NCBI GenBank assembly: GCA_036389475.1
Contig: DASVPU010000052.1
Span: 1-52,647, forward strand
Length of the DNA: 52,647 nt
DNA from: Solirubrobacteraceae bacterium
Lineage (GTDB): Bacteria > Actinomycetota > Thermoleophilia > Solirubrobacterales > Solirubrobacteraceae
Reading direction: 5' to 3'
Shown: positions 1,692 through 47,981 of the stretch, piece by piece
Numbering within the stretch: the stretch's first letter is position 1
How the letters are laid out: every line of letters starts with the position of its first letter
Notes under the pieces: model-generated
Databases searched by the model: none
Seen by the model: only the letters and a program-made list of their open reading frames with translations
Told to the model about the DNA's origin: nothing
Made by a program: the position numbers and the translations under genes

Positions 1692-1979
1692 AGGTCCTCC
1701 CAGGCTGCCCAGCCGTGCACGGGCAGCTTTCGATGATTGTCTGGTGTGCTTGGCGCCTGCGCGACGGGATCACTCAGGGCAGCCGAACGCGCACCTCCGA
1801 GACACTCCCCTTGGCCTACGGGTTCCGTTGCTTCCCGTCACGCCTCTCTGACGCCCGGCGACCGTAGTAAAGGCGCACCGGCACAGTCAACGCGCTCAAA
1901 CGCAAAGCCATGCTCTCAGCGGTGTTTTTCTTGTGGGAACTGCTTGTGAAGGAATGGACAAGCGAACGGCCCGGTTCGA

Positions 1980-9773: not shown

Positions 9774-9856
9774 TACCCCACAGGTTCGAAGGGTCAGCGT
9801 CGCACGGTGGGCGCTATCTCAGCCGGCCTGCCGCCAGCCCCCCTGGTTATCAGCCG
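9774..9856 (-). promoter_or_regulatory. TPP (thiamine pyrophosphate) riboswitch
   Basis: The minus strand reads GGGGGGCUGG...GGCUGAGAUAGCG(variable stem)CGCUGACCCUUCGAACCUGUGGGGUAAUGCCCGCGGAGGGAGCG-AUG. The CUGAGA, ACCCUU-GAACCUG and GGGUAAUGCCC-GCG-GAGGGA blocks match the THI-element consensus. The 3' arm contains the SD of the ATG at 9773. Confidence 0.75.
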
Positions 9857-10108
9857 ATCCACCGTAGCAGAGCCAAATTCAGCCCCGAAACCAGGCGTCC
9901 GCCCGGTTCGTGCGTAGGAGCGATCGTTGACTGCTGGATCCGATTCGCGGTACGTTTGGATCGAGCTGCGAGGAGGCAGGTTGCTCCAGGGTCGATACGT
10001 ACGGCTATGAGGACGTAGCAGGCGTTCTGCCTTACACCCTGTCCAGGCCGCTGTCTCCGCCGCCCTCCCGTCAGGCGGCTGGTTCTCGAGCGCATGGCCT
10101 GGCTGCGC

Positions 10109-10453
10109 TTATTTCTTCTTGCGGGCGACGGCGCGCTTGAGCTCGTCCTTGTTCATCTTCGAGCGTCCGTCGATGCCGAGCTGGCGGGCCTCGTTGTAGA
10201 GCTGGTCGCGCGTAGGCCCCTTCTCGCGGTCCGTGCCGGAGCGAAGCCCGCCGCGGCGGCCGGAGGAGATGTCCTCGACCGACGTGCGTGAGCGCGTGCG
10301 AGACTCGCCGGCCCGCGCGCGCTCCTTGTTGACCGTCCTGGCCGCGATCTCCTCCGCCTCGTCCTCGGAACGACCCTGATCTCGCAGGCCGTCCTTGATG
10401 TGCTCGTACTGACGGGCGCGCTTGGTGCCCTTCTTCACGCCGGCAGGTGGCAT
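10109..10453 (-). CDS. small basic protein with a C-terminal Rho-N/SAP-like domain
   Basis: Start at 'MPPAGVKKGTKRARQYEHIK' with AGGGAG upstream. C-terminal 'TRDQLYNEARQLGIDGRSKMNKDELKRAVARKKK'. Confidence 0.5.
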   Translation of the reverse strand: MPPAGVKKGTKRARQYEHIKDGLRDQGRSEDEAEEIAARTVNKERARAGESRTRSRTSVEDISSGRRGGLRSGTDREKGPTRDQLYNEARQLGIDGRSKMNKDELKRAVARKKK

Positions 10454-10578
10454 GGGCAAACTCCCTTTGATCGCATCTCCGAGGGTTCCTCTACCCGGTA
10501 GGCGTCGCCCGCAGGCGCCGCGGACGGGCACCGCAGGCCGGTGAGTGACGCACGCATCAGCGGGTACCGTGCGACGAC

Positions 10579-11748
10579 GTGCGCAACCTCATGATCCCCC
10601 GCGAGCCGACCAACGATCCCGCCGCGCTGCCGCTCGATCGGGCGTGGCTGCGGGCGACGTTCGACATCGAGCGTCCCTGCACGATCGGCCTCGAGGAGGA
10701 GCTCATGCTGCTCGATCCGGCCACGCTGGACCTCGCGCCGTGCGCGAGCGAGACGATAGCCGCGATGGGCGGGGACAAGCGCTTCAAGCTCGAGCTGGTC
10801 GCAGCCCAGATCGAGAGCGTCACCGTGCCGGTGCAGACCGTCTCCCGGGCGGCGGCCGCCCTGAGCGCCGCGCGGCGCGATCTGCAAGCGGCACTTGAGG
10901 ACACTACGCTCGTCGCGGGAGCGGGCATGCATCCGTTCGCCGACCCCCTTGGGGAGCTCAACGACGGCCTGCGATACGAGGCGCTGAGCGAGGAGTTCGC
11001 GAGCGTCGCGCGGCGTCAGCTCGTGTTCGGGCTGCACGTCCACGTCGCGGTCAGCGGTGCCGCGCGGGCGATCGCCGTGCATGACGCGCTGCGCTCCTAC
11101 CTGCCCGAGATCGCTGCGCTCGGCGCCAACGCGCCGTTTTACGACGGGCGCGACAGCGGCCTCGCCTCGGTGCGGCCGACGATCGTGACGGCCCTGCCGC
11201 GCCAGGGCATTCCGCCGGCGCTGCGCAGCTGGGACGCGTTTCTCGCCGCGCTGAGCTGGGCCGCAAACGCCGGTGCCCTGCCCGACCCGCGACGCTGGTG
11301 GTGGGATCTGCGGCTGCACCCGATTCACGGCACGATCGAGGTGCGCGTCCTCGACACGCAGACGACGGTGAGCGAGACGGCTGCCATCGCGGCGCTCGTG
11401 CACGCGCTGGTCGCGACGCTCGCGGAGCGCTTCGACGCCGGCGCGTGCCTGCCGGTGGCGCCGACCTGGCGGATCGCCGAGAACCGCTGGTGGGCGACCC
11501 GCGACGGGCTCGACGCGCGGCTCGCCGACCTGCTGACCGGCGAGCGCACTGCGGTGCGCGAGCGCCTGCATGCGCTGCTGGACGAAGTCGCCCCGGCTGC
11601 GCAGCGACTAGGTTGCGCCGCCGAGCTGGACGATGCGCGCGCGCTCGTGGACGGGCGCGGCGGGGCGGGACATCAGCGCGAGGTTGCCCAGAGCGATGGC
11701 CTCGGCGGCCTCGTCGCGTGGCTTGCCGATCAATTGCTGTTCGGGTAG
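10579..11748 (+). CDS. carboxylate-amine ligase, glutamate-cysteine ligase family 2 (YbdK-type)
   Basis: 'IGLEEELMLLDP', 'ELVAAQIESVT', 'FGLHVHVAV', 'LGANAPFYDGRDSGLAS', 'WWDLRLHPIHGTIEVRVLD'. Confidence 0.85.
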   Translation: MRNLMIPREPTNDPAALPLDRAWLRATFDIERPCTIGLEEELMLLDPATLDLAPCASETIAAMGGDKRFKLELVAAQIESVTVPVQTVSRAAAALSAARRDLQAALEDTTLVAGAGMHPFADPLGELNDGLRYEALSEEFASVARRQLVFGLHVHVAVSGAARAIAVHDALRSYLPEIAALGANAPFYDGRDSGLASVRPTIVTALPRQGIPPALRSWDAFLAALSWAANAGALPDPRRWWWDLRLHPIHGTIEVRVLDTQTTVSETAAIAALVHALVATLAERFDAGACLPVAPTWRIAENRWWATRDGLDARLADLLTGERTAVRERLHALLDEVAPAAQRLGCAAELDDARALVDGRGGAGHQREVAQSDGLGGLVAWLADQLLFG

Positions 11749-32963: not shown

Positions 32964-34967
32964 GTGCTGAAACGCGTGTTCGTGTTCAAGGCCGCGGTCG
33001 TCGGAGCAGGAACGATGGGAGGCGAGATCGCCCAGGTCATCGCCTCCGCCGGCATCCCGGTCGTCCTCAAGGACGTCAAGCAGGAGTTCGTCGATCTCGG
33101 CCTGAAGAAGGCCGACGAGGTCACGCGCGGGCAGCTCGCCGGTCTCGTCTCCAAGGGCAAGATCACCGAGCAGCAGGCCGATGCGCAGGCAACCGACATC
33201 CTCGGCCGCATCACCGGCACGACCGCGTACGCAGGCTTCGGCGACGTCGACTTCGTCATCGAGGCGGTGCCCGAGCGGATGGCGATCAAGCAGGCCGTCC
33301 TGGCCGAGCTCGACAGCGTCACACCCGGTCACGCGATCCTCGCGTCGAACACGTCGTCGCTGCCGATCGGCGAGATGGCCGAGGCGACCCGCCGGCCCGA
33401 CAAGGTCGTCGGCTTTCACTTCTTCTATCCCGCGTCGTTCATGCGCCTCGTCGAAATCGTCGAGGGCATCGACACGTCGCCTGAGACGGTGCAGACGGCG
33501 ACGACGTTCGCCCAGAGCATCCGCAAGCTCCCGATCGTCTGCGGCGACGAGCCGGGCTTCGTCGTCAACCGCATCCTGATGTCGTCGATCAGCGAGATCT
33601 GGCGCTTTCAGGAGGAGAACGAGCTGTCGATCAAGGCGATCGACGACGCGGTCACCGGCGCGCGCGTCGCACCGATGGGTCCGTACTTCCTCAGCGACCT
33701 GCTCGGCCTCGACACGGTGTTCCACGTCGCACAGCACCTGCAGGAGTCCTACGGGGATGACAGCTTCTACGTGCACTCCGGGCTGCGAGCGCTCGTCGAG
33801 GCCGGCGAGCTCGGCGCGAAGACCGGCAAGGGCTTCTACGCGACCGGCGAGCCGCGCTCGACCGGCGAGAGCGAGTTCGACGCCGACGAGCTCACGCAGC
33901 GCTATGTGCTCAAGGCGTTCGTCGAAGCCTGCCTGCTGCTCGAGGAGGGCATGGCATCGATGAAGGACATCGATCTCGGGATGATGGCCGGCGCCGGGAT
34001 GCTGCCGCCGCCGTTCGCGCGCGCGGACCAGAGCGGTCTGGATGACGTGCTCGACGCTCTGGAGCGCGCCGCGGCGCAGTGGGGCGACCGCTACGCGCCA
34101 CCACAGATACTGCGCCGGCTCGTCGCGCAGGGGCGCCTCGGCGTCAAGAGCGGCCAAGGGTTCTTTGCCTACAAGCGCCCGGATGACACCTTCGAGCAAG
34201 GCGACGCCGTGCAGCTCGAGACCCGCGGCGCGACCGCGATCGCGTGGCTCGACCGTCCGCCGGCGAACTCGCTCTCGCCGCAGGTCATCGCCGAGCTCGG
34301 GCGGGTCTGGGAGCACGTCGACGGCGACGACTCGATCCGCGCGCTCGTTCTCGCCTCGGCGAACCCGATGCTGTTCTGCGCCGGCGCCGACATCAAGGCG
34401 TTCACGCAGATGGACGAGCAGACCGGCGCCGCGCTGATGCACGAGACGCATGCGCTGCTGCGCTCGATGGAGCGCTCTTCGACGGCCACGATCGCCGCTG
34501 TCAACGCCGTCGCCTTCGGCGGCGGCTGCGAGCTGGCGATGGCCTGCGACGTGCGGATCGCGGCGCAGTCGGCAAGCTTCGGCCAGCCGGAGATCAACCT
34601 CGGGATCATTCCCGGCTTCGGCGGTACCCAGCGGCTGCCGCGGCTCGTGGGGACGTCGCGAGCGCTTGAGATGAACCTCACGGGCGATCCGATCTCCGCC
34701 GAGGACGCCTATGAGATCGGGCTGGTCAATCGCGTCGTGCCCGACCACGAGCTGTTCGACGCCGCGCTCGCGTGGGCGCGCAAGCTCGGCGGTCAGGCGC
34801 CTCTCGCGGTCGCGGCGATCAAGCGCACGACGGCCGGCGACGCCGACCTCGACGAGGGCATCGAGACCGAGAAGGCCGCCTTCGGCAAGATCTTCGGCAC
34901 CGCCGACGCGCGCGAGGGCATCAGCGCGTTCCTCGGCAAGCGCTCGGCGCAGTGGAAAGGCGAATAG
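32964..34967 (+). CDS. bifunctional 3-hydroxyacyl-CoA dehydrogenase / enoyl-CoA hydratase (FadB-like, dehydrogenase domain first)
   Basis: AAAGGAG precedes GTG 32964. NAD fold '[18 protein letters not shown]'. Crotonase motifs '[10 protein letters not shown]' and '[15 protein letters not shown]'. Confidence 0.9.
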
Positions 34968-35710
34968 CCGGCGCCGGCGTCCAGAAGCTGGCGGAGCTCG
35001 TCCGCTCCGCTGCATCGACCGTTGCGCTGACCGGCGCCGGGATCTCGGTCCCGTCCGGGATCCCCGACTTCCGCTCTCCCGCAACCGGGATCTGGGAGAA
35101 CGTCGACCCGATGCAGGTCGCGCACATCGACGCTTGGCGCCGTGACCCCCAGCGCTTCTGGAGCTTCTATGGCCAGCGCTTCCAGATGCTCGGGGACAAG
35201 CTCCCCAACGCTGCCCATGAGGCTCTGGTCGAGCTTGAGAGCCGGCGGCTGCTCGACGCGGTCATCACGCAGAACATCGACATGCTGCACCGCAAGGCGG
35301 GCACGAAGGATCTGATCGAGGTTCACGGATCGATCGCTACGAGCTCATGCTCCAGCTGCGAAGCGAGCTTCGGGCTCGACGAGGTGCTGGCGCGCTGCCG
35401 CGACGGAGGAGGAGTGCCGCCGTGCGATTGCGGGCGCCCGCTGAAGCCCGACGTCGTGCTGTTCGGCGAGCTCCTCCCGCAAGCGGCGCTCCGGCGAGCG
35501 AGCGCGCTGGCGGAGAATGCCGAGCTGTTGCTCTGCGTCGGCTCCTCGCTGGAGGTCTTTCCGGTGGCTGCGCTGCCGCAGTCGACGTTGCGCGGCGGCG
35601 GGCAGGTCGCGATCGTCACCCAGGGCCAAACGCCTTGGGACAAGCAGGCAGCCGTCAAGCTCAGCGGCGACGTCGCGGACGAGCTGACGTGTCTTGTTGC
35701 CGCGTTGTAA
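34952..35710 (+). CDS. cobB: NAD-dependent protein deacylase, Sir2 family
   Basis: 'ALTGAGISVPSGIPDFRS', 'ITQNIDMLHRKAG', 'EVHGS' and the zinc ribbon 'CSSC ... CDCG'. There is no ATG. GTG 34952 overlaps the FadB-like 3' end by 16 nt. The start is uncertain. Confidence 0.75.
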   Translation: MERRIAGAGVQKLAELVRSAASTVALTGAGISVPSGIPDFRSPATGIWENVDPMQVAHIDAWRRDPQRFWSFYGQRFQMLGDKLPNAAHEALVELESRRLLDAVITQNIDMLHRKAGTKDLIEVHGSIATSSCSSCEASFGLDEVLARCRDGGGVPPCDCGRPLKPDVVLFGELLPQAALRRASALAENAELLLCVGSSLEVFPVAALPQSTLRGGGQVAIVTQGQTPWDKQAAVKLSGDVADELTCLVAAL

Positions 35711-35918
35711 ACCACGGAGAGCTGTCCCCCGAGCACGTCCGCCGGCAGCCGCATAAACAGGATCAAAATAAGCAGCGCGGGCCTCCTGTCTATACGTGAG
35801 CATGGATCCGCGGCGCTTAGATCTAGGTCGATCGAACGTCTTGACGTTTAGATCTGATCAGGGCACCCTGAATACTCAAGAAGGGCTGCGCAATGAAGAC
35901 GAGGCGGGGGTAATCACA

Positions 35919-36584
35919 GTGGATGTAAAGCCAGTGCGTACTGTCGTGATCGGCGAGATCCGGGTGTACCGCGAAGGCCTGGCACAGGTTCTCGGCCGCC
36001 AACCAAGCATCGACGTCGTCGGCACCGGATGCACGACCGAGGACGCGTTGGCCTGCGTCGCCGAGCAGCGGCCGGACGTCGTGCTCGTCGATGACGGCCT
36101 GCCGAGTGCCCGGACGCTGATCGGACGGATCAGCGGCGGCGATCACCGCGTGAGCGTGCTCGCGATCAGCGTACCGGAGGAGGAGCGTGCCGTCCTCGCC
36201 TGCGTCGAGGCCGGCGCTGCCGGGTTCCTCCCGCCCCAGGCGTCGCTGGCGGAGGTCATCGCGGCCGTCACGGCGCTTGCGCAGGGCGAGTTTCACTTTC
36301 CGTCGCGGATGACCGCGATGCTCCTCCGGCGCGTCACGCGCCTGTCGTCCCCGAAGGAGCTCGGTGCCGACGGGATGCTGACGCGCCGAGAGCACGAGGT
36401 CGTCGACCTCATCGAGGGAGGACTGTCCAACAAGGAGATCGCGCGGCGCCTGAGCATCAGCATCGCCACCGTGAAGAACCATGTTCACAACATCCTGCAC
36501 AAGCTCGACGTGGGATCTCGTAAAGAAGCTGTGGCGCGCATCCGGGCGCTGCGTACTCCCAGCTACGGGTCCAGCCATTCCTGA
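35919..36584 (+). CDS. LuxR/NarL-family regulator with an atypical receiver domain (no cognate kinase adjacent)
   Basis: C-terminal HTH 'LTRREHEVVDLIEGGLSNKEIARRLSISIATVKNHVHNILHKL'. The receiver has 'VVIGEIR' in place of the acidic DD pair and 'GFLPPQ' in place of the conserved Lys. The longest ORF starts at 35796. Confidence 0.75.
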   Translation: MDVKPVRTVVIGEIRVYREGLAQVLGRQPSIDVVGTGCTTEDALACVAEQRPDVVLVDDGLPSARTLIGRISGGDHRVSVLAISVPEEERAVLACVEAGAAGFLPPQASLAEVIAAVTALAQGEFHFPSRMTAMLLRRVTRLSSPKELGADGMLTRREHEVVDLIEGGLSNKEIARRLSISIATVKNHVHNILHKLDVGSRKEAVARIRALRTPSYGSSHS

Positions 36585-36744
36585 GACTGATATCTACTCG
36601 AGCTGGTCCACCTGCGTGACTGATATAGATCACCGCGATCCACGTCTACCCGCCGATCCAAGATAGATCCTCGATCCATTTTCACCGCAACGCGGTGGAG
36701 TGATACTGCGTTGGTCCTGACACTCCAACACGAGGAGACGAGCG
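36585..36744 (+). promoter_or_regulatory. repeat-rich, comparatively AT-rich promoter/operator region of the peptide operon
   Basis: GACTGATAT occurs at 36585 and 36618. GATCCA occurs at 36637, 36655 and 36673, an 18-nt period. Palindrome CACCGC-AAC-GCGGTG at 36683-36697. A possible -35 TTTTCA (36679) and -10 GATACT (36701). GAGGAG RBS at 36732. Confidence 0.4.
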
Positions 36745-37035
36745 ATGGCAAACGGAGATCTCGAGCAGCGGGTCGCGGCGCTGGAAGCCCAAGGCGGCCA
36801 GAGCGGCGGAGGCGCAGGCGGAGGCGGCGACGCAGGCCAGGTCCAAGCGTTCCTACAGGGCGCGCTGGCGGCGTATGCCGCGTCCCAGCAGCCTCAGGCC
36901 CAGGGGCTGCAGGCGGGCGGCGGGGCCGGCGGCGAACAAGGCCTCTTCGGGTGGAACCCGACGAAGTACGACTCGATCTTCTGGTGCAAGAGTCGATTCA
37001 TGTGCAACCCGCAGTCGGTTTCCTGCCTCTGCTAG
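36745..37035 (+). CDS. candidate RiPP (lanthipeptide-type) precursor peptide
   Basis: 96 aa, with GAGGAG 7 nt upstream. Gly/Gln/Ala-rich leader. The last ~30 aa, 'LFGWNPTKYDSIFWCKSRFMCNPQSVSCLC', hold all 4 Cys and 5 of the 7 Ser/Thr. It sits directly upstream of the kinase/LanC genes. Confidence 0.7.
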   Translation: MANGDLEQRVAALEAQGGQSGGGAGGGGDAGQVQAFLQGALAAYAASQQPQAQGLQAGGGAGGEQGLFGWNPTKYDSIFWCKSRFMCNPQSVSCLC

Positions 37036-37048
37036 CACGGCGACTGAC

Positions 37049-37137
37049 GACGACGGCCCATCAGGCACACGCAAGGCCAGCCTGTTCCGGCGGGAGGCGC
37101 CCCGTGGGGCGCCACCAGCCGGACGGGGGCCGTCGTC
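37049..37137 (+). promoter_or_regulatory. nested stem-loop between the precursor and biosynthetic genes (possible attenuator / processing site)
   Basis: Outer stem GACGACGGCCC (37049-37059) pairs with GGGCCGTCGTC (37127-37137). Inner hairpin GGCGCCCC (37096-37103) pairs with GGGGCGCC (37106-37113). No U-tract. Confidence 0.4.
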
Positions 37138-37152
37138 GCCGCCACAGACCAG

Positions 37153-38289
37153 ATGCAACAGATCGCACACCGCAAGCGTGCGGCTCTCATGAGCGAGAGC
37201 GATGTCGTCGACTATCTTCTCGAACGCAACCTGATCGACGCGGCTGCGATCGTCGACGGCGATCTGCGGCTCATCGATGCCTCGCGACGCAACACGAACT
37301 TCCGCGTGGTGCGTGAGCGGGCCTCCTCATACCTGCTCAAGCAGGGCGCAGGTCGTGACCCGTTCGTATCGACTGCGCGCGAGGCGTTCGTCTACGCGCT
37401 GCTCGCCGACGCCGGTGGGAAGGCGATTGCGCGGCTCCTGCCCCGGGTCTACGACTTCGACGCCGATCGCGAGCTGCTCATCATCGAGCTCTTCGAAGGT
37501 GCCGACGACCTGCGCGCCTACCACCACCGCCGGGGGCGCTTCCCGACATCGGTCGCGGCGCAGCTCGGCAAAGCACTCGCGCAGCTGCACGCGCTACCCG
37601 CTCGCGCCGGCGCAACGATGGGCGGACATGCGCTCGACGCTCCCGAGCCGGCCGGGTTGTTCCTGCACCGCCCGGGCCTTCCGGTCCTGCACGACCTCAG
37701 CGGCGCCGGCACGGACATCGTGCGCCTGATCCAGCGCTCGGACGGCGTCTTCGACGTGCTCGAGAGCATGCGCCGGCAGTGGCGGCGAGACCGCTTCATC
37801 CACCACGACATGCGCTGGGACAACGTCCTTGTCACTCGAACTGCGAGCGGTAAGCCGGCGTTGAAGCTCATCGACTGGGAAGCCGCGGGCCTGGGGGATC
37901 CGGGTTGGGACCTCGGTGGGATCCTCGGCGACTACCTCGCCTGCTGGATCACCTCCATCCCGCTCACCGGCCACGACACGCCCGACCGTTATCTGGGTCT
38001 GGCTCGCTACCCGCTGAAAGCGATTCAACCGGCGCTGGGCGCGTTGTGGAACGCCTACGTAGCCCAGGCGGGGCTGACGGCGAGCGAGTGCCGCGAGCTG
38101 CTGATCGCGACGGCGAGATACACGGGGCTGAAGCTCATGGAGATGGCACTTGAACACGTCCAGCATCAGCCAGAGTGCAACATGACGGCGGTTACGCTCG
38201 TCCAGGTCGGAGTCAACATCGTGACCAGTCCCGAGCATGCAGCTCGCGTGCTGCTATCGCTCGCCGCGCCGTCTGAGGCTTTGCAGTGA
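37153..38289 (+). CDS. protein-kinase-like phosphotransferase (APH/MtnK-type), putative peptide Ser/Thr kinase
   Basis: 'FIHHDMRWDNVLV' (HxDxxxxN catalytic loop) and 'LKLIDWEAAGLGDPGWDL' (metal-binding Asp). N-lobe 'RNTNFRVVRERASSYLLKQG'. An alternative ATG lies at 37189. Confidence 0.75.
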   Translation: MQQIAHRKRAALMSESDVVDYLLERNLIDAAAIVDGDLRLIDASRRNTNFRVVRERASSYLLKQGAGRDPFVSTAREAFVYALLADAGGKAIARLLPRVYDFDADRELLIIELFEGADDLRAYHHRRGRFPTSVAAQLGKALAQLHALPARAGATMGGHALDAPEPAGLFLHRPGLPVLHDLSGAGTDIVRLIQRSDGVFDVLESMRRQWRRDRFIHHDMRWDNVLVTRTASGKPALKLIDWEAAGLGDPGWDLGGILGDYLACWITSIPLTGHDTPDRYLGLARYPLKAIQPALGALWNAYVAQAGLTASECRELLIATARYTGLKLMEMALEHVQHQPECNMTAVTLVQVGVNIVTSPEHAARVLLSLAAPSEALQ

Positions 38290-40709
38290 GTGAACATCTT
38301 CGTCAGGTACAGCAGGTCGTGGGGGCCGTCGAGATCACCTCACCCACGTCGTTCACCTGGTTTGGTGCGCCGTCGGGGCAGCTGCCGGCGCGAGTCAGGC
38401 GCGAGATCGATGCGGCAGTTGCGCGATCTCACCTGTTGTTCACCCTTCGCAATCACCTCTACAAGGACTTCTACTGTGTCGGGTTCGCTTCACGCATGGC
38501 GCCGGAGGTGGGCGAGGCGTCGGTTTCATGCCAGGAGACCCAGCTGACGCGCGAGCTGGCGCGCGCAAACCGTGGCTGCGGCTACTGGCAGCCGGGGTGG
38601 GTCGTGACGGGCCGCCACGACGAGATGGTGGTCGTACGCCGCGACGGGCTGGAGCTCTGGATCGCGACCGAGGACTGCAGGCCCTGCGCGGGCGGATCGA
38701 TCGCACCTGCGTCCGACGTCGCGCTACGGCTGCCAAACGGCTCGTGCGAGCTCTCGCCCGGCTACTACTCGGCGATGAGCGACGAAGCACTGGACCCAGA
38801 GGGGAGGGGGGGCACGCTCGTTCGCCTGTACTGGAACGTCGCGCCGGCGTCGGCCGCATGCCTCATGATCGCGATCACCTCCCACCTGAATGCTGCGCGC
38901 CTGCCGTTCAGGCTGAAGATCCTCAGCGACGCGCTCTCCTACGGGCGTTGTGACACCGCCGTGCTGTACATGCTCAAGGACGATCTCAAGGCAGGTGCTC
39001 GCGAGCTGGCGCGGGCGTATGCCGAGGCGCTTGACGGCCTGCGGCCGGGGACCCCCGCATTCACGAAGGAGATCGCGCATGGAGTGAGCCTGGCGGAGGA
39101 TGCCGGCGACGGTGAGAGCTTCGGGCAGCACCGCTGCGAGCTGCTCGCCGAGGGACTGATCCGCGCGTCCGAGCACGGTCACCGCAAGCTCGAGCAGCGC
39201 ATGGCGAGCGTGGAGGGGACGTTCGCGCAGGCGGGCGTGGACTTTGAGCTCCCCTATCTGCGGCACGGCTCGGCGGATGACTACGACCTCGTGCTTGCGC
39301 CACAGCCGGCGGTGCGACGCGCGCGAGGAGCGACTGATCGCTCGCCCGACGCCGCCGCGTTCCTCGCGATCGCCACTCAGATCGGGGAGCGGCTCGTCGC
39401 CGAAGCGGTATGGGACGAGGATCGCTGCAACTGGCTGGCGCTGCTTCCCCACGCGATCACGACGCGGCAGATCGGCCTCTCCTATGGAGCCCTGAACCAC
39501 GAGCTCTACGACGGCACGAGCGGGATCGCGCTGTACCTCGCCCAGCTGCACTGCCTCACCGGCGACGAAGCACTGCGCCGGACGGCGCTCGGAGCCGCGC
39601 GGCAGGCGCTACGCGTCGCCGCGCAGGACAGGTTAACGATCGGCTTGTACACCGGGACGCTCGGCATCGCCTTCGCCTCGGCCTGCGTCGGGATGCTGCT
39701 GTCAGAGGACTCGCTCGCGCCGCTCGCGGCCCGCCTCGTGCGGCGAATCTCCGACGGCGAAGGCGAGATCGCTGGCTTCGACTTCCTCTCCGGGCGCGCC
39801 GGCGCGATCAGCGGCCTGCTGATCCTGCACGAGGCGCTCGGGGATCGGCTGTTCCTCGCGCTTGCCAGACAGCTCGGCGACGACCTGGTTGCCAGCGCCG
39901 AGCGGACGCCGCGGGGCTGGTCATGGGTCTCTGACATGGAAGGTGGCAACCACCCCAACCTCACGGGTCTGTCGCACGGTGCCGCCGGTGCCGGACACGC
40001 CCTGCTCGAGCTCTTCGACGCAACCGGTGACACGCTGTATCGTGCGGGCGCCGAAGGGGCCTACCGCTACGAGCGCTCCTGGTTCTACGACGACGAGCGC
40101 AACTGGCCCGACCTGCGCGAGCAGCCGCGCCGCAGCACGCAGCCTCGTCCTGGCACCTGCCGGGTCCAGTGGTGCCACGGCGCGCCGGGGATTGCGCTGG
40201 CGAGGATCCACGCCTATGAGGTCCTCGGCGACCCCGTCTACCGCGACGAAGCGCTGACGGCGCTGGCGACGACCGAGTCACAGACCGAGATGGCGCTGCG
40301 CCGCTCGACGTTGAGCTACTGCCTGTGCCACGGCCTCGGAGGCAACGCCGATGTCCTCCTGGAGGGTCGGCGACTACGTTCGCCAAACGCGGCCAACCGC
40401 GCCAACGGCGCCAACGTTGGCGGCTCGTTGCCGGTGCGGATCGGCGCCGCCGGCATCGGCGCGCACGCCGAGAGCGGGATGCCGTGGCCGTGCGGGATCC
40501 CGGTACCTGGGCGGGAGACGCCGGGGCTGATGCTCGGACTGGCTGGCATCGGCCACTTCTACATGCGCCTGGCGTTCCCCGAGGCGATCCCGTCGATGCT
40601 GCTGCCGCGCCGCGCGGACGTCGCCCGTTTCGCGGCGCTGGCAGGACCGCGCGACCGCATCGCAGTCGCCGATCACGATCCCCGGCTGGAAGAGAGGAGC
40701 CCGTCATGA
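38286..40709 (+). CDS. fusion protein: N-terminal HopA1-like (putative phospho-Ser/Thr lyase) domain + C-terminal LanC-type zinc cyclase
   Basis: GTGA overlap with the kinase stop. LanC motifs 'GLSHGAAGAGHAL', 'VQWCHGAPGIALA' and 'YCLCHGLGGNAD'. The N-domain carries 'LVRLYWNV', 'LPFRLKIL', 'YGRCDTAVLYM' and 'ESFGQHRCE'. Confidence 0.75.
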   Translation: MSEHLRQVQQVVGAVEITSPTSFTWFGAPSGQLPARVRREIDAAVARSHLLFTLRNHLYKDFYCVGFASRMAPEVGEASVSCQETQLTRELARANRGCGYWQPGWVVTGRHDEMVVVRRDGLELWIATEDCRPCAGGSIAPASDVALRLPNGSCELSPGYYSAMSDEALDPEGRGGTLVRLYWNVAPASAACLMIAITSHLNAARLPFRLKILSDALSYGRCDTAVLYMLKDDLKAGARELARAYAEALDGLRPGTPAFTKEIAHGVSLAEDAGDGESFGQHRCELLAEGLIRASEHGHRKLEQRMASVEGTFAQAGVDFELPYLRHGSADDYDLVLAPQPAVRRARGATDRSPDAAAFLAIATQIGERLVAEAVWDEDRCNWLALLPHAITTRQIGLSYGALNHELYDGTSGIALYLAQLHCLTGDEALRRTALGAARQALRVAAQDRLTIGLYTGTLGIAFASACVGMLLSEDSLAPLAARLVRRISDGEGEIAGFDFLSGRAGAISGLLILHEALGDRLFLALARQLGDDLVASAERTPRGWSWVSDMEGGNHPNLTGLSHGAAGAGHALLELFDATGDTLYRAGAEGAYRYERSWFYDDERNWPDLREQPRRSTQPRPGTCRVQWCHGAPGIALARIHAYEVLGDPVYRDEALTALATTESQTEMALRRSTLSYCLCHGLGGNADVLLEGRRLRSPNAANRANGANVGGSLPVRIGAAGIGAHAESGMPWPCGIPVPGRETPGLMLGLAGIGHFYMRLAFPEAIPSMLLPRRADVARFAALAGPRDRIAVADHDPRLEERSPS

Positions 40710-41809
40710 CAGATCGGTGTCGAAGCTGCGGGCGTCACGCACCACCCGTCGTCTGCTCGATCATCCCGTCCCACGTGCTCGCCGAGCTCAGCACTGGCGG
40801 AGGCGACGGCGGGCAGGACGCTGCAATCAAGACGCTCGCCGCCTCGTCCAGCGTCCGCGGGCAGCGCACGGTCACGGCGAGGCTGCTGCGCCAGCTCGAC
40901 ACCGGGATCGCCGGCCTGCTCCCTGCCGCCGCAGGAAACCACGAGCGCCAGACGATCTATGACGCGCAAGGCGAGACGCGCCTGCCTGGAGCCAAGGTCC
41001 GCGGCGAATCAGACGATCCGGCCCGCGATGCGATTGCGAACGAGGCCTTCGACGGCGCCGAGCGTAGCTACAGCTTCTTCAAGGACGTCTTCGGCCGCAA
41101 CAGCATCGACGGCCAGGGCGTGAAGCTCATCTCCTCCGTGCACTACGGCCAAGCCTTCGACAACGCGCTGTGGAACGGCACGCAGATGATCTACGGCGAC
41201 GGGAGCGGAGCGATCATCGCGCAGGGCCAGCTCACGAAGGCGATCGACGTCATCGGCCACGAGCTCACCCACGGCATCACCCAGACGACCGCCGGACTGG
41301 AGTACCGCAAGCAGTCCGGAGCGCTGAACGAGTCGTTCTCGGACGTCTTCGGCTCGCTCGTCAAGCAGCGTGTCCGGGGGGAGACGGCGGAGCAGGCCGA
41401 TTGGCTTATCGGCGAGCGGCTGCTGGGGAGCGCTCTGAAGGGAAAGGCACTCCGGTCATTGAAGGACCCGGGCCATGCGTTTGACTTCGATCGCCAGCCG
41501 GCACACGTGAACGACTACGTCGACCTGCCCGACGACAACGACCCCCGCAACGACAACGGCGGGGTGCACATCAACTCCGGCATCCCCAACCACGCCTTCT
41601 ACCTCGTGGCGACGACCCTCGGCGGGAACGCCTGGGAGAAGCCGGGGCAGATCTGGTTTAAGACGCTGACCGAGCGACTGCGACCGAAATCGGACTTCCT
41701 CGAGGCTGCCAACGCGACCGTTGACGTCGCGGGCAAGCTGTTCGGCGACGGCGGCTTGGAGCAGCGCGCGGTGCGCGCCGCATGGAGGGTCGTGGGCGTC
41801 TTGCGATGA
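40706..41809 (+). CDS. M4 (thermolysin-family) metallopeptidase of the signal-less protealysin-like type
   Basis: ATGA overlap with the LanC gene. 'VIGHELTHGITQ' (HExxH), 'GALNESFSDVFG' and 'GGVHINSGIPNHAFYL'. N-terminal 'VVCSIIPSHVLAEL' resembles the propeptide motif. No signal peptide. Confidence 0.9.
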   Translation: MTDRCRSCGRHAPPVVCSIIPSHVLAELSTGGGDGGQDAAIKTLAASSSVRGQRTVTARLLRQLDTGIAGLLPAAAGNHERQTIYDAQGETRLPGAKVRGESDDPARDAIANEAFDGAERSYSFFKDVFGRNSIDGQGVKLISSVHYGQAFDNALWNGTQMIYGDGSGAIIAQGQLTKAIDVIGHELTHGITQTTAGLEYRKQSGALNESFSDVFGSLVKQRVRGETAEQADWLIGERLLGSALKGKALRSLKDPGHAFDFDRQPAHVNDYVDLPDDNDPRNDNGGVHINSGIPNHAFYLVATTLGGNAWEKPGQIWFKTLTERLRPKSDFLEAANATVDVAGKLFGDGGLEQRAVRAAWRVVGVLR

Positions 41810-42129
41810 GGCTGACGGTGGTCCAGGGCGGCGGCATCGCCGGGCTCCTGCGGACGGTGTCGGCCGATTCGGCGTCGCTGGAGCCGGCGCAGGCCGATGC
41901 CCTCGAGGCCATGATCGAGGATGCCGGCCTGTTCGACCTGCCCGAGCGGCTGGGACCCGCCTCCTCGCACCCCGACGCGTTCGACTATGAGCTGACCGTC
42001 GAGGACGGCGAGCGGCGCAAGACGATCCGCGCCAGCCAGGACGCGCTGCCCGAGCAGGTGCGCGCGCTGATCCAGTGGCTGCAGTCGGTGCCGGGCCACG
42101 AGGAGCGAGTCCATGCGCCGGGCACCTAG
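41806..42129 (+). CDS. emfourin-like small protein (putative proteinaceous inhibitor of the adjacent M4 peptidase)
   Basis: ATGA overlap with the peptidase stop. 107 aa with 'MRLTVVQGGGIAGLLRTV ... PDAFDYELTVEDGERRKTIRA ... LPEQVRALIQWL'. Confidence 0.55.
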   Translation: MRLTVVQGGGIAGLLRTVSADSASLEPAQADALEAMIEDAGLFDLPERLGPASSHPDAFDYELTVEDGERRKTIRASQDALPEQVRALIQWLQSVPGHEERVHAPGT

Positions 42130-42154
42130 CGCTCAGTCCTTGCGGGGCGGACCG

Positions 42155-44110
42155 CTAGGATCGCTCCTGACGACCGCCGAGGTGCTCGGCGAGGAACTGC
42201 TCGGCAGCAGCGATGAAGCGCAGCTGGCTGTGCTCACCGACAAGGCTGTGGCCCTCGTCATCGAAGCGCAGGTACGTGTGCGGCACGCCGCTCTGCGTCA
42301 TCGCCTCCACCAGCGCCTCGGACTCCGCAACGCTCACGCGCGGGTCGTGGGCGCCATGCGCGAGGAGCACGGGGATTCGGATGTCGGCGGCATGAGCGAG
42401 CGGCGAGCGTGCCCAGAGGAGTTCCGCGTCGTGGCGCGGGTCGCCGATGCGGCGGCGTAGCTGCGGCGCGAGGCCCGCCCAGTACGGCGGCGTGCGCTCG
42501 ATCAGCGTCACGAGGTTCGTCGGGCCGGCGAGGGAGATCGCGCAGCGGAACACGTCTGGAGTGAACGCGGCGGCGGCGAGGGCCGCGTACCCGCCGTAGG
42601 ATGCGCCCGAGATCCCGATCCGAGCTCCGTCGGCGTGGCCCTCGTCGATGGCCCAGGCGACCGCGTCCACGAGATCGTCCTGCATCTTGGCACCCCATTC
42701 GCGGTCGCCGGCGGCCAGAAACCGCCTCCCGTAGCCGGTGGAGCCGCGGAAGTTGACCTGGATGCAGAGGTAGCCGCGGTTGGCGAGCCACTGCACCTCC
42801 GGATCGAACCCCCAACGATCACGGCCATAGGGACCGCCGTGGACGCTGACCACCGCCGGCCACCGTGCCCGTCCGAACGTGGGAAACGTCACGTAGCCGT
42901 GGACGAGCAAGCCGTCACGCGCGCGAAAGCTGAAGGGCTCCATCCGCGCCAGGCGGTAGCGGCTCAGCGCGGGGCGTGTCTGGAAGAGCAGCTCTGGCTT
43001 GCGCGAGCGCCGGTCGTAGAGGTGGTAGACCGGGGGACGGTCGTCGGCGTTCAGCCGCACGATCCAGCGCTGATCGGCATCGTCGCGGCTCGTCAGGTGC
43101 GGATCGCCTCGGCCGAGCTCGCCATGGGCCGCGAGATCCGGCTCGAGCGCGCGGTCGACGACGAGGTAGCGCAGCCGCTCGCCGTCGACCGTGGCCAGCT
43201 GCGGCTCGTGCGTATGCGGATCGATCCGCACGCCGGAGATGTCGAACGACGGATGCCCCGCGATCTCGCGCGCGCTGCCGTCGTTCAGATTGAGGCGGTG
43301 CAGGCGCGCCGTGTCTTCGCCGAAGGTGCAGACGGCGAACAGCTCGCGGCCGTCATCGCTGAAGCCGAAGGCAGAGGTGGCGAACGCATCGTCGGCGTCC
43401 GCGACGAGGATCGTGCGCCACGTGCCCGGGCCGGCGTCGCGCACCCAGATCTCAAGGCCGCCGTCCGCCCGCGGGTGGATCCCCCCGCGCGGGCGCAGCT
43501 GATGATCGACCACCCACGAGGGAAACCAGGAGAACCCCGGGTTCTTCTCGGCCAGCTCGATCTCACCGGTCGCGATCCGGATCCTGTAGGCGTCGTGCAG
43601 CTCGGGGTCGTCGCGATTGAGGCCCACGAGCGCCTCCCCGGGCACGGCCGGCTCGAGCCCCAGCAAGCGCGCCTGGACACCATCGAAGGGCGTCAGGTCG
43701 CGATCCTCGCCCGTCTGCACGTCGACGGCGTGCAGATGCCAGTTCTCGTCGCCGTCGCGGTCCTGGACGTACAGCAGATGGCGGCCGTCGTGTGCCCACG
43801 CGTGGCCCATGATGCTGCGCCGGGACTCGCGCGTCAGCGGTCGCGCTCGCGTCGAGTCCAGATCGCCAACCCAGATGTTGGAGATTCCGCCGCTGGGCGC
43901 GAGGTACGCGATGCGTCGACCGTCGGGCGACAGCGCCGGCGCTTCTCGCTGGGGATTGTCGAAGAGCACGCTGCGCGCAATCAACCCGGCCTCCGCTTTC
44001 GCTGGCGCACCACGTTTCGACGGGCCGGCGTCAGCCATCGTCCCGCTGCCGTTCACGGCCCCGGTCAGCGCGGGCTCGCGGGCATGTCCGGCGCACCCTG
44101 TACAGAACAT
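42155..44110 (-). CDS. S9 family serine peptidase (prolyl oligopeptidase / dipeptidyl peptidase type)
   Basis: N-terminal beta-propeller repeats ('LSPDGRRIAYL', 'WAHDGRHLLY'). Catalytic 'GISGASYGGYAALAAAAF'. C-terminal 'HGAHDPRV' and 'DEGHS'. The start may be ATG 44038. Confidence 0.85.
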   Translation of the reverse strand: MFCTGCAGHAREPALTGAVNGSGTMADAGPSKRGAPAKAEAGLIARSVLFDNPQREAPALSPDGRRIAYLAPSGGISNIWVGDLDSTRARPLTRESRRSIMGHAWAHDGRHLLYVQDRDGDENWHLHAVDVQTGEDRDLTPFDGVQARLLGLEPAVPGEALVGLNRDDPELHDAYRIRIATGEIELAEKNPGFSWFPSWVVDHQLRPRGGIHPRADGGLEIWVRDAGPGTWRTILVADADDAFATSAFGFSDDGRELFAVCTFGEDTARLHRLNLNDGSAREIAGHPSFDISGVRIDPHTHEPQLATVDGERLRYLVVDRALEPDLAAHGELGRGDPHLTSRDDADQRWIVRLNADDRPPVYHLYDRRSRKPELLFQTRPALSRYRLARMEPFSFRARDGLLVHGYVTFPTFGRARWPAVVSVHGGPYGRDRWGFDPEVQWLANRGYLCIQVNFRGSTGYGRRFLAAGDREWGAKMQDDLVDAVAWAIDEGHADGARIGISGASYGGYAALAAAAFTPDVFRCAISLAGPTNLVTLIERTPPYWAGLAPQLRRRIGDPRHDAELLWARSPLAHAADIRIPVLLAHGAHDPRVSVAESEALVEAMTQSGVPHTYLRFDDEGHSLVGEHSQLRFIAAAEQFLAEHLGGRQERS

Positions 44111-45485: not shown

Positions 45486-47981
45486 CTACTCGGCCTTGTG
45501 CGCCTGACTGGCCCGCCCCAGCTGCGGGACCTTGATCGCGTACTTGGACGGCGCCAGCTGGACCGTGGGATTGTCGATGTGACCCAGGCGGTCGATCAGC
45601 TTGATCCACTGCGACGGCTTGAGCACCGATGAGGCGATCTGCCCGGCCTTCGAGTTCAGGCTGAACTGCGGCCGGAAGCCGACGTGGATGTGGTCGGCGT
45701 GGTCGGCCATCGCGAGTGTGTTGTCAGCGCCCTCGTAGGTCATCAGGGTGATGATCTGCGCGGGCTTCATCGTCCCCTGCAGCGTCAGCAACCTGCGAAC
45801 CGCGATGTCCGTGATCGAGCCCGCACCCTGGTTGCCCAGGATCGGGATCCCGTTGATCTTGGCGATGTCCACCGCGTTACCCGACGAGTGCGCCGAGACG
45901 TTGCCCGACGAGGTGTAGTAGCCGTGGCCACACTGCAGCGACGTGACGGTCGGCTTCAGACCCGAGGACGCGAGGAACTCGAGCGTCGCGAGCACGCGGC
46001 GGTCGACGATCCCCGACTCGATGTCACGACGTCCGCAAGAGTAGGTCTCGATCCGAGGGTTAGCCAGGACGCGCTGGATCAGGTTGTCCTTGCTCTCGAG
46101 CAGGATCTGCCCGATCGTCGCGGTCTGGGCGTTCTCGCCGAGCAACGGGTTCTTGCCCTGCGCCCGGTAGATCGCGGTCGACTCGAGCAGCTTCCAGCCG
46201 TCGAGGATCGGCTTCGGATCGATCCGCGGAGCTCCGCGCCCGGCGGGCCGGATCTCGAACAGCATGTGCGGAGCGAGCGTCGGCGACGTCTTGCCGATCC
46301 GTCCGAGGATCGTGCCCGCGATGACGCGGCGACCGGGGACCAGACGCTTGAGCACGACGTCGTGGCGGTTGAGGCCGTAGACCCCGGTGAAGTACGACTT
46401 GACGTTGCCCGTCAGCGCCGACTCGGATTCGAGGATCTGCTTGCGCCCGCCGCTGTCCAGCGCCCTCGGGCGCGACGGGTTGGCGAACAGCCGCTCCTTG
46501 GCGACGGCCGTCGTCTCCTGCACCGCCTGAGCGGGCGCCTGGACGGCCTGCTTGACGGCCTTGACCGGGTCCTTGACCACCTTCTTGACTGCCGTGCTGG
46601 AGGACGAGCTGGCCGGCGCCGTGGGCGCCGGGTCGGCCTTCGGGAGCGCGAGCTCCTTGGCGATCGACTCCTTCGTCTGCGTCTTGCTCTTGGGCACCGG
46701 CACCTGCTTGGCGACGGTCTTCAGACCGGCGTAGGTGTAGGTGTTGCCGTAGGCGTCGCGCAGCATCACGAAGTTGCCAAGGCGCGTGTTGCGCCCGACC
46801 TTGACGATCTTGCCGTCCTGGACGGCCACGACCGCAGACTTCGCGTTGGCGAAGATGTTGATGCCGCGCCGAGCGCTCTTGCCCTCGACCGGCATCGCCG
46901 CGTTCTGGCCGCGAGCGAAGCGACGTGTCGCGTCGCGCTCGGAGATGTCGTCGGCGTACTTCGACGTCGCGTGGACCGGGAAGATGCCCTGCGTCAGCCC
47001 GCTGATCGAGCCGATGAGATCCGCTGGCATGCCGCCGATGAACCGTGCGCGCATGAGCACCGAGTCGACGTACCAATCGGCGTGGTTGTAGGCGTAGATC
47101 GCCTTGCGCAGATCCTGATCGGCGCCCGCCGCCTTGAGATAGCGCGCCGCGGCGAAGATTGCGTCGACCGGGTTGTAGGGATCCTTCTTGCCATCGGAAT
47201 TGGCGTCCACCGCCCACGTCTTCCAGCTCGACGGGATGAACTGCATCCAGCCCATCGCCCCGGCGGAGCTGACGTTGAGGTTGCGGCCATAGTCGGTCTC
47301 GATCTCGTTGATCGCCGCCAGGACCTCCCAGCGGATGCCGTACTGGATGCCCGCCGCCTGATAGATCGACAGCAAGAAGGCCGGGATCCGGAACTTGTTG
47401 ATGAAGAAGTTCGGAACGCCGACGGGAACCGCGCCGGGGAGAGCCAGGGACATCGTCGGGTTCGACAGCGTCGGGATGCCGTTGGAGTGGCGCAGGTCGG
47501 TGGCCTTCGGCCGGGCGGTCTCGGGCGCCCGCGCGGCGGTGTCCAGAAGGCGTCCGGCCGTATCGACCCCCTTCTCGACGTTGGCCTTGGCCTTCTTCGA
47601 CTTCTTGACGACCGTCTTGTCGACCGGGGCCTGGAGCGGGACGGTTGGCTGCTCTGCGACCGGGGCGGCAGGCGCCGCAGCCGGTACGGTGGGCTTGATC
47701 GACAGCGACGGTCCGTTGCTGGGGGGCGCGTTGACCGGCGTGATCTCCTTGATGCTGAGGATCGGCAGCGCCCCGATGTTGGGCAGCCTGATCTGATCAA
47801 GGGGGAGGTCTGCACCCACATCGATCGTGATGGTCTTCTTGATCTTTCCGAGCAGCTGGAGTTCGAACGTGCGCTTGATAGCGCTCGCGGGGCCAGCAAA
47901 TGTCCCGAATCCGACGGCTATGCCGCCGCTCGCGACCATAGCCATGAGCAGCCTACGCTTGTGGTGCATGTGTTCCTGCAT
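45486..47981 (-). CDS. secreted multidomain peptidoglycan hydrolase (lytic transglycosylase + M23 peptidase + LAS/M15-like zinc peptidase)
   Basis: Signal peptide 'LLMAMVASGGIAVGFGTFAGPASA'. SLT domain 'AINEIETDYGRN ... GAMGWMQFIPSSW'. M23 domain 'VVAVQDGKIVKVG ... APHMLFEIRPAG'. C-terminal 'SAHSSGNAVDIA ... ADHADHIHVGF'. Confidence 0.8.
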   Translation of the reverse strand: MQEHMHHKRRLLMAMVASGGIAVGFGTFAGPASAIKRTFELQLLGKIKKTITIDVGADLPLDQIRLPNIGALPILSIKEITPVNAPPSNGPSLSIKPTVPAAAPAAPVAEQPTVPLQAPVDKTVVKKSKKAKANVEKGVDTAGRLLDTAARAPETARPKATDLRHSNGIPTLSNPTMSLALPGAVPVGVPNFFINKFRIPAFLLSIYQAAGIQYGIRWEVLAAINEIETDYGRNLNVSSAGAMGWMQFIPSSWKTWAVDANSDGKKDPYNPVDAIFAAARYLKAAGADQDLRKAIYAYNHADWYVDSVLMRARFIGGMPADLIGSISGLTQGIFPVHATSKYADDISERDATRRFARGQNAAMPVEGKSARRGINIFANAKSAVVAVQDGKIVKVGRNTRLGNFVMLRDAYGNTYTYAGLKTVAKQVPVPKSKTQTKESIAKELALPKADPAPTAPASSSSSTAVKKVVKDPVKAVKQAVQAPAQAVQETTAVAKERLFANPSRPRALDSGGRKQILESESALTGNVKSYFTGVYGLNRHDVVLKRLVPGRRVIAGTILGRIGKTSPTLAPHMLFEIRPAGRGAPRIDPKPILDGWKLLESTAIYRAQGKNPLLGENAQTATIGQILLESKDNLIQRVLANPRIETYSCGRRDIESGIVDRRVLATLEFLASSGLKPTVTSLQCGHGYYTSSGNVSAHSSGNAVDIAKINGIPILGNQGAGSITDIAVRRLLTLQGTMKPAQIITLMTYEGADNTLAMADHADHIHVGFRPQFSLNSKAGQIASSVLKPSQWIKLIDRLGHIDNPTVQLAPSKYAIKVPQLGRASQAHKAE

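Follow-up and report, generated by a model that had tools for sequence, protein, structure and literature searches.

The window considered here is the 52,647-nucleotide (nt) contig DASVPU010000052.1 of a Solirubrobacteraceae bacterium, with a G+C content of about 69%, and the system under study is an operon of five genes for a lanthipeptide-type peptide that is made by the ribosome and modified after translation (a RiPP). A short precursor peptide gene, whose ATG lies 7 nt downstream of a GGAG-type ribosome-binding site, is followed by genes for a free kinase (LanK), for a fusion of a HopA1-type lyase with a zinc lanthionine cyclase (LanY::LanC), for an M4 metalloprotease, and for a protease inhibitor of the emfourin family. 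The initial annotation, made from the letters alone, had proposed a RiPP operon of this kind; the proposal is supported, its five open reading frames (ORFs) are borne out by the ORF list and by direct reading (coordinates in the table below), and the motifs quoted in it are all present at defined residues of the kinase and the fusion protein. The 4-nt overlaps likewise lie where they were placed, namely GTGA at 38286–38289 between the kinase and fusion genes, ATGA at 40706–40709 between the fusion and M4 genes, and ATGA at 41806–41809 between the M4 and emfourin genes. The coupled unit that was drawn from these overlaps stands for the last four genes; the peptide gene shares no such overlap with the kinase gene, from which it is set apart by a gap of 117–153 nt that holds a very stable hairpin.

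The kinase, described at the outset as a free APH-type enzyme, was compared with profile libraries and matched the Pfam family APH (PF01636, E = 3e-17). As a stand-alone APH kinase, it bears the HxD...N loop within FIHHDMRWDN (aa 215–224) and the Mg-binding Asp within LIDWE (aa 239–243), and the residues K63, H217, D219, N224, D241, and E243 are invariant in six kinase orthologues. The NCBIfam model of LxmK is matched over nearly its full length (E = 4e-30), and a sequence search of the PDB recovers LxmK itself, the kinase of the lexapeptide dehydratase complex LxmKY (9dk1_A, E = 1.4e-4). An aligned M(T/R)E(S/A)D marks the start in four of five close kinase homologues, and translation in the window probably begins at the corresponding ATG (M13, leaving 366 aa) rather than at the first codon of the ORF.

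The fusion protein divides into two halves. In its N-terminal half, Pfam HopA1 (PF17914) is matched at aa 155–325 (E = 3.9e-37), a segment that includes the motifs LVRLYWNV (178–185), LPFRLKIL (206–213), YGRCDTAVLYM (219–229), and ESFGQHRCE (277–285), and aa 139–294 match the PDB chain of LxmY, 9dk1_B, by sequence (E = 1.4e-12). An AlphaFold2 model built from 27 homologues (mean predicted local distance difference test score, pLDDT, 87.2; predicted template-modelling score 0.82) resolves into two domains, between which aa 340–350 form a linker of low confidence. When this model is searched with Foldseek, LxmY ranks first (E = 2.7e-14) with a template-modelling (TM) score of 0.78; because LxmY superposes over 329 columns, the entire N-terminal portion of about 340 residues is, in the model, a LanY domain that reaches well beyond the Pfam segment. 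In the lyase CaoY, residues R187, K219, R229, and Y236 have been shown or argued to be catalytic, being mutagenised or conserved (PMC9486802). Their counterparts in the window are R180, K211, R221, and Y228, which are spaced by 31, 10, and 7 residues, against 32, 10, and 7 in CaoY, and are invariant or near-invariant in 27 fusions.

The C-terminal half matches Pfam LANC_like (PF05147, aa 403–773, E = 2.4e-52) and contains SHGAAG (563–568), WCHGAPG (629–635), and CHGLGG (681–686); the same 27 fusions all keep C630, C681, and H682, the zinc ligands, and nearly all keep H564. Its sequence matches in the PDB are LicM2 (E = 3e-19), LanCL1/2, and NisC, and the modelled domain superposes on LanCL and NisC with TM scores of 0.65–0.71 by Foldseek. 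Against the NCBIfam LanM model (TIGR03897) only model positions 538–932 are covered, with E = 5e-73. Profile, PDB-sequence, and fold searches thus agree on a HopA1-like lyase covalently fused to a zinc LanC, as first proposed. The Pfam matches of the kinase, the fusion protein, and the two downstream gene products are much stronger than chance would give. Three related fusions, P0044 (1115 aa), P0056 (1063 aa), and P0069 (1193 aa), carry 300–400 additional C-terminal residues, and the extensions of P0044 and P0056 have no Pfam match; here and below, P-numbers denote related proteins and L-numbers related loci.

The presumed substrate of these enzymes is encoded upstream. The precursor consists of a leader of 72 residues (36745–36960), with the motifs DLEQRVAALEAQ and QAFLQGALxAYAASQQ, and a conserved core of residues 73–96 (36961–37032), TKYDSIFWCKSRFMCNPQSVSCLC. 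Homologous to it are 37 clusters, all unnamed and nearly all metagenomic, one of them from a metagenome-assembled genome (MAG) of the Mycobacteriales, so that the precursor belongs to a new, unnamed, and almost entirely metagenomic family of 38 members, in which the core of about 24 residues is near-invariant (TxYDSxxWCxSRFMCNPQSxSCLC). The alignment of the 38 sequences leaves T73, Y75, D76, W80, C81, S83, R84, C87, N88, S91, S93, C94, and C96 unchanged, and no Ser, Thr, or Cys of the core varies save for one Ser77-to-Thr change, which is still dehydratable. Pairwise comparison of the cores of seven loci gives 129 synonymous against 75 non-synonymous codon differences; the non-synonymous changes are limited to six positions, none of which is an invariant Ser, Thr, or Cys, and the codons of the invariant residues vary synonymously. 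The four Ser, one Thr, and four Cys of the core are under purifying selection, and the peptide gene is real, given its 37 homologous clusters and the synonymous variation at invariant residues. Each of the four Ser stands three or four residues before a Cys, and the terminal SxSCxC has the same spacing as the overlapping rings D and E of nisin.

A leader motif akin to that of the window, FL(Q/K)GG(I)..(F/Y)LP, is found in precursors of distant fusion loci. In the form (Q)A.FL(Q/K/R)G(G/D/E/T)I....(F/Y)LP it is common to the precursors at L004, L007, L032, L038, L043, and L064, which have distantly related fusion enzymes and come from different phyla, and it resembles the QAFLQGAL of the window. 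The shared pattern suggests a candidate general recognition sequence for the fusion enzyme family.

As summarised in PMC11186320 and PMC12291118, class V is split into Va, with LanK, LanY, LanD, and LanX but no LanC, and Vb, with LanK, LanY, and a dedicated, stand-alone zinc LanC; the LanC of class Vb is required for overlapping rings, as these two sources relate for the SmoA system of Pei et al. (JACS 2022). With class Vb, the initial annotation's premise of kinase/HopA1 pathways without a LanC-type cyclase is out of date. The locus shows the hallmarks of class V in its stand-alone APH kinase, its HopA1 lyase with a catalytic set of the CaoY type, and its adjacent kinase and lyase genes beside a short Ser/Thr/Cys-containing precursor gene, and that of class Vb in its zinc-type LanC; from class Vb it departs in that the LanC is not a separate protein and lies with the lyase in a single ORF. 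The LanD (HFCD flavoprotein) and LanX (second kinase-like) domains that class Va uses for aminovinyl-methylcysteine (AviMeCys) were not found in any gene between 34.7 and 47.9 kb. For class II, the DUF4135 domain (PF13575) is absent from the fusion protein in Pfam; for classes III and IV, there is no PF00069 match, and the LanL and LanKC models match by their cyclase parts only (aa 366–693 to model positions 476–783). Among the NCBIfam models, the dehydratase parts of LanM, LanL, and LanKC find no match in the fusion protein. Class VI (LanKCb of streptococci) was weighed as well and set aside because it is unrelated. With a probability of roughly 0.8, the locus belongs to the Vb kind of class V-type lanthipeptide clusters, with LanY and LanC in one 807-aa chain and LanK as a separate, translationally coupled subunit.

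Table. Features of the lanthipeptide locus and its conserved surroundings in the window.
Feature	Position	Strand	Basis
LuxR-family response regulator, putative pathway regulator	35796..36584	+	Pfam GerE E 3.4e-17, Response_reg E 8e-9
Precursor peptide gene (LanA-type), 96 aa	36745..37035	+	37 homologous clusters
GC-rich stem-loop, putative attenuator or mRNA-stabilising hairpin	37039..37143	+	folding energy against shuffles; putative function
LanK, APH-family Ser/Thr kinase, 378-aa ORF	37153..38289 (start probably ATG 37189)	+	Pfam APH
LanY domain of 807-aa fusion protein (ORF 38286-40709), aa 1-339 including N-terminal subdomain	38286..39302	+	Pfam HopA1, PDB LxmY, fold
Inter-domain linker, aa 340-350	39303..39335	+	AlphaFold2 pLDDT <50; matches gene boundary in split relative L086
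LanC domain of fusion protein, zinc lanthionine cyclase of LanM-C-terminal type	39336..40709	+	Pfam LANC_like
Protealysin-like M4 zinc metalloprotease, proposed leader peptidase, 367 aa	40706..41809	+	Pfam Peptidase_M4/M4_C
Emfourin-family M4 protease inhibitor, 107 aa	41806..42129	+	Pfam Emfourin PF20242
S9-family serine peptidase (PD40 propeller + Peptidase_S9), convergent; cluster membership tentative	42155..44110	-	Pfam Peptidase_S9 E 7.6e-47

The operon of the initial annotation, 36745–42129, lies within a larger conserved block, 35796–44110, which adds a LuxR regulator and a convergent S9 peptidase in the order LuxR–A–K–YC–M4–emfourin–S9. LuxR orthologues stand 5' of the precursor gene in L081 (46% identity) and L084 (60% identity); L081 shares both the upstream LuxR gene and a convergent, 60%-identical S9 orthologue downstream, and synteny ends beyond them. 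The bounds of the block are placed at these two genes because the genes beyond LuxR and S9 in L081 are unrelated to those of the window, which are ordinary genes for a Sir2 deacetylase, a FadB-like protein, and an acyl-CoA dehydrogenase upstream (region of 34772–35710) and, downstream, an ArsR-type helix-turn-helix gene and a gene for an 831-aa SLT + M23 cell-wall hydrolase (45486–47981, minus strand). The S9 enzyme is a possible second processing peptidase. Large antisense ORFs across the region were discarded as the usual artefacts of high-GC DNA, and a scan for sigma-70 promoters and intrinsic terminators gave nothing useful in DNA of this composition.

The hairpin directly 3' of the precursor stop codon has a minimum free energy of -69.9 kcal/mol (z = -3.8), and none of 200 shuffled sequences is as stable. 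Equivalent hairpins of different sequence lie 3' of the precursor gene in L084 (z = -4.2), L081 (z = -3.8), and L083 (z = -3.2). It may set the ratio of peptide to enzymes.

The M4 gene product matches Pfam Peptidase_M4 (E = 3e-28) and M4_C (E = 3e-54), and direct reading finds HELTH (aa 185–189), NESFSD, and GGVH intact and no obvious signal peptide. The emfourin gene product matches PF20242 with E = 2.6e-20. An HExxH M4 protease with its downstream Glu ligand, followed by a PF20242 gene, is the pattern of the protealysin/emfourin pair; protealysin is an intracellular M4 protease whose active site is blocked 1:1 by emfourin, encoded in the protealysin operon (PMC9505478). Among the closest relatives inspected for synteny (56–64% identity, all metagenomic), the order precursor, kinase, fusion, M4, and emfourin is repeated in L081, L083, and L085, and in all four M4-bearing loci the emfourin gene lies directly 3' of the M4 gene. 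The linked proteases of these relatives are 60–66% identical to that of the window and the linked emfourins 45–53% identical. L081, a 47-kb contig, holds two M4-emfourin pairs, at 1625–3014 and 9343–10714, of which one is inside the lanthipeptide cluster; the second copy shows 46% identity for the protease and 27% for the inhibitor. This other pair lies about 6 kb upstream, beside LuxC/LuxE-type genes.

In a sister clade, the slot of M4 and emfourin is taken by a Peptidase_S8 gene and a gene for a protein of about 85 aa (L167, 12933–14623; L169, 10713–12424; L171, 5549–7245). The small protein is conserved and belongs to no Pfam family; the only hint of its identity is a sub-threshold match to a subtilase prodomain (E = 0.089), and a role as a cognate inhibitor is possible. 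Subtilases are the classical LanP leader peptidases, and the replacement of M4/emfourin by a subtilase in the same slot is the main argument for M4 as the leader peptidase. On this basis, a tentative case, short of even odds, can be made for a cytoplasmic leader peptidase that is dedicated to the operon and comes with its own inhibitor, namely M4 and emfourin here and, in the sister clade, the subtilase and the protein of about 85 aa. Alternatively, the M4 and emfourin genes could be an autonomous protealysin-type operon, toxin/immunity-like or housekeeping, and the leader could be removed by other proteases. The Serratia protealysin and emfourin genes are bicistronic and have been proposed as an effector/immunity pair (PMC9505478), L081 has its second, unlinked pair, and many loci do without one, all of which favour autonomy; the 4-nt overlaps that tie the M4 gene to the fusion gene and to the emfourin gene, the common slot in four loci, protease identities that track those of the fusion protein for the linked copies and not for the second copy, and the subtilase with its small protein in the exact slot, as expected for a LanP-like function, make autonomy unlikely. 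The pair is in any event not essential to the synthetase, because many fused loci lack it. A link of emfourin to RiPPs is not reported in the literature found that mentions emfourin.

The sister clade differs in two further features. Its precursors (P0233, P0235, P0237–P0241, and P0243–P0245) have an additional AFLSIFGC module before a GGGGW(S/N)PT.YDS core; the module mirrors YDSIFWC, which suggests a fifth ring and an earlier boundary between leader and core. In L167, L169, and L171, a gene for a luciferase-like monooxygenase (Bac_luciferase) stands just 5' of the precursor gene, and the enzyme could, by analogy with LxmJ, be a reductase of dehydroalanine (Dha) and dehydrobutyrine (Dhb).

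The initial annotation had further placed the arrangement outside classes I–V, and had asked for other HopA1::LanC fusions to be sought. The search finds the kinase and fusion pair in about 100 loci from many phyla. A set of 5.8 billion proteins yields 58 fusion clusters, and a scan of species-representative genomes yields 80 fusion loci, distributed over the Actinomycetota, Chloroflexota, Acidobacteriota, Pseudomonadota, Bacteroidota, Planctomycetota, and Bacillota, with a further one on a short contig that is binned as Nitrososphaeraceae; the nearest relative in the latter scan is a Mycobacteriales MAG with 47% identity, and in 75 of the 80 loci a kinase match ends just 5' of the fusion gene. 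HopA1 and LanC domains occur together in 104 fetched loci, 96 of which also contain the kinase. A metagenome scan with the single protein returned no match; with an alignment, it returned relatives of at most 45% identity and no further M4-bearing locus.

When the lyase domain alone is compared with 1.84 billion representatives, 837 hits are obtained at E <= 1e-30, and among the best 150 there are 97 fused proteins (at least 740 aa) and 38 stand-alone ones (320–365 aa). Because fused and stand-alone relatives interleave at equal similarity, fusion and fission are frequent within one family. In L086, where the lyase stands alone, the next gene, a separate lanC, overlaps it by 4 nt and aligns to aa 357–409 of the window fusion, so that the split point coincides with the modelled linker. 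Such fusions were also known from genome mining: Eyles et al. (Chem Sci 2021) surveyed 1,340 HopA1 proteins, 96% of them beside a phosphotransferase, and put forward the HopA1-LanC fusions as perhaps a 'new uncharacterised lanthionine synthetase' (PMC8153245). The Walker 2020 lanthipeptide census makes no mention of HopA1 or APH. L007, a 5.1-kb contig from a Nitrososphaeraceae archaeon bin, has the kinase and HopA1::LanC genes followed by a short peptide with a FLKGEIVSRYLP leader motif; the contig is short and mis-binning is possible. In L066 (Lacinutrix jangbogonensis), a precursor of a different type lies 5' of the pair (5984–6316); in a single ORF it repeats in tandem, four times over, a unit of about 25 aa that ends CCW(I/V)V(L/V)ATTGC(S/T)T, which gives it the look of a multi-core lanthipeptide precursor.

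A categorically new synthetase class, joining class V dehydration to a class IV-like tethered zinc cyclase, would accord with the three activities of LanL that LanK and LanY::LanC jointly equal, and the literature searched yielded no characterised enzyme in which the two chains are laid out in exactly this way. However, classes are defined by their dehydration and cyclisation enzymes, and LanK (PF01636), LanY (PF17914), and a zinc LanC are the class Vb set; moreover, the fused and split forms are intermixed close relatives that part at a linker, the split equivalent is class Vb, and the fusion has been on record since 2021. A new class is thus improbable, and the locus is a new example of the described, fused, Vb-like sub-type. 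The initial annotation would have yielded to an arrangement that already belongs to a characterised class, and this came about by half: the split form is characterised, whereas the fused form has been described without biochemical characterisation in the literature searched. A LanCL-like domain, adding glutathione or another thiol to the dehydro residues, or an inactive one, with a dehydrated and/or disulfide-bonded product, is very improbable; LanCL1 and LanCL2 are indeed among the best structural matches and class Va rings can form without any cyclase (PMC11186320), but the best sequence match is to LanM cyclase domains, including LicM2, the zinc ligands are invariant, four Cys lie at i+3 or i+4 from four invariant Ser in 38 precursors, and SxSCxC implies overlapping rings, the very case in which class Vb needs LanC.

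Several points weigh against the assignment to the Vb kind or against the roles given to the parts of the cluster. No biochemistry of any fused LanY-LanC enzyme was found in the literature searched, in which class Vb itself is known second-hand. The kinase is a distant relative of LxmK, because its score of 105 bits is far under the equivalog cut-off of 315. According to Pfam, genes between 34.7 and 47.9 kb include no exporter, transporter, or immunity gene in or near the syntenic block, and among close relatives an ABC transporter gene occurs only at L085. The M4 and emfourin genes are absent from L082 and L001, which have the same precursor family, and from about 100 other loci with LanK and LanY::LanC; the S9 peptidase recurs in only two loci and is missing after emfourin in L083. 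The hairpin lacks a U-tract and receives no canonical terminator call in the terminator scan, and the proposed ring topology and cleavage site derive from analogy of pattern.

The mechanism proposed for the cluster builds on the identities of the domains and their catalytic residues, on synteny, and on the selection seen in the core, from which the chemistry, the rings, the cleavage site, and the role of the hairpin are extrapolated. The 96-aa precursor would be made in excess over the enzymes, its stop codon being followed by the hairpin. LanK would bind the leader, probably through the QAFLQGAL/AYAASQQ helix, and would, by homology to CaoK and LxmK, phosphorylate Thr73, Ser77, Ser83, Ser91, and Ser93 with ATP. 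The LanY domain, presumably docked on LanK as in the LxmKY heterodimer, would then use R180, K211, R221, and Y228 to eliminate phosphate, yielding Dhb and Dha. In the LanC domain, zinc would be held by C630, C681, and H682, with H564 as the acid/base, and Cys81, Cys87, Cys94, and Cys96 would be added to the dehydro residues to form up to four thioether rings; these are predicted as 77–81, 83–87, and an overlapping pair, 91–94 and 93–96, as in nisin D and E. The M4 protease would remove the leader, probably N-terminal to L/I-F in QG|(L/I)FGWNPT, and would be held in check by emfourin, which would prevent premature or off-target proteolysis; the S9 peptidase may trim the product further.

The locus leaves the classification of lanthipeptide synthetases unchanged; what merits follow-up is the precursor family and the protease-inhibitor module, the latter being the less expected part. 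With a peptide, two enzymes, a protease, and an inhibitor, it offers a compact and conserved test case for an architecture that was flagged in 2021 and apparently never reconstituted, and that is widespread, with about 100 loci and 837 representative clusters for the lyase domain. That a core of 24 residues is near-invariant implies a single specific target or function that is conserved, and the core may be a new lanthipeptide scaffold whose C-terminal rings overlap as in nisin. The M4-emfourin pair provides a testable substrate for protealysin-like proteases, the physiological role of which is debated. If the operon does carry a dedicated peptidase with its inhibitor, the inhibitor would act as a gate on leader removal, and for the first time a natural substrate, the modified precursor, would be assigned to a protealysin-like protease/emfourin pair of actinobacterial origin; on the same reading, LanK and LanY::LanC would form a two-chain class V synthetase with a tethered zinc cyclase, the first to be defined biochemically.

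Among known systems, class Vb (SmoA), as described in PMC11186320 and PMC12291118, shares with the window an APH kinase, a HopA1 lyase, and a LanC, the lack of LanD and LanX, and a core that in the window ends SxSCxC. It differs in that the window has LanY and LanC in one polypeptide and M4, emfourin, and S9 accessory genes, which those accounts do not describe for Smo; the precursor families are seemingly unrelated, as judged without the Smo sequences. The clusters of Eyles et al. (Families 11/20 and 22, PMC8153245) likewise have a phosphotransferase beside HopA1::LanC and short Cys-containing peptides upstream; theirs are bioinformatic only, membership of the window precursor in their families is not confirmed, as the text holds no sequences, and their co-occurrence table did not score M4 or emfourin. 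Class Va pairs, namely LxmK-LxmY (PDB 9DK1) and CaoK-CaoY, have a homologous kinase and lyase, with the Arg/Lys/Arg/Tyr set kept, and the whole LxmY fold, including its kinase-docking part, is recovered in the modelled N-domain of the window; identity to LxmY is about 25%, and unlike class Va the window has a LanC, without LanD or LanX for AviMeCys.

The protealysin-emfourin operon of Serratia proteamaculans (PMC9505478) resembles the accessory module of the window in its gene order, M4 and then emfourin, in the lack of an obvious signal peptide, and in a Cys-x-(I/V)-(I/L/V)-Pro motif near the N-terminus of the protease. Unlike the Serratia operon, the pair in the window sits inside a RiPP operon, to which it is coupled by overlaps, and the genome is high in GC and actinobacterium-like. 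Finally, the OspF-type lyase and PF00069 kinase that LanL carries in one chain, and the DUF4135 kinase/lyase domain of LanM, are absent from this locus; nevertheless, the fusion protein is like class IV LanL (CuvL, PDB 8CAV) and class II LanM (LicM2, CylM) in tethering a zinc cyclase to dehydration machinery, and its cyclase domain is closest in sequence to the C-terminal domains of LanM.

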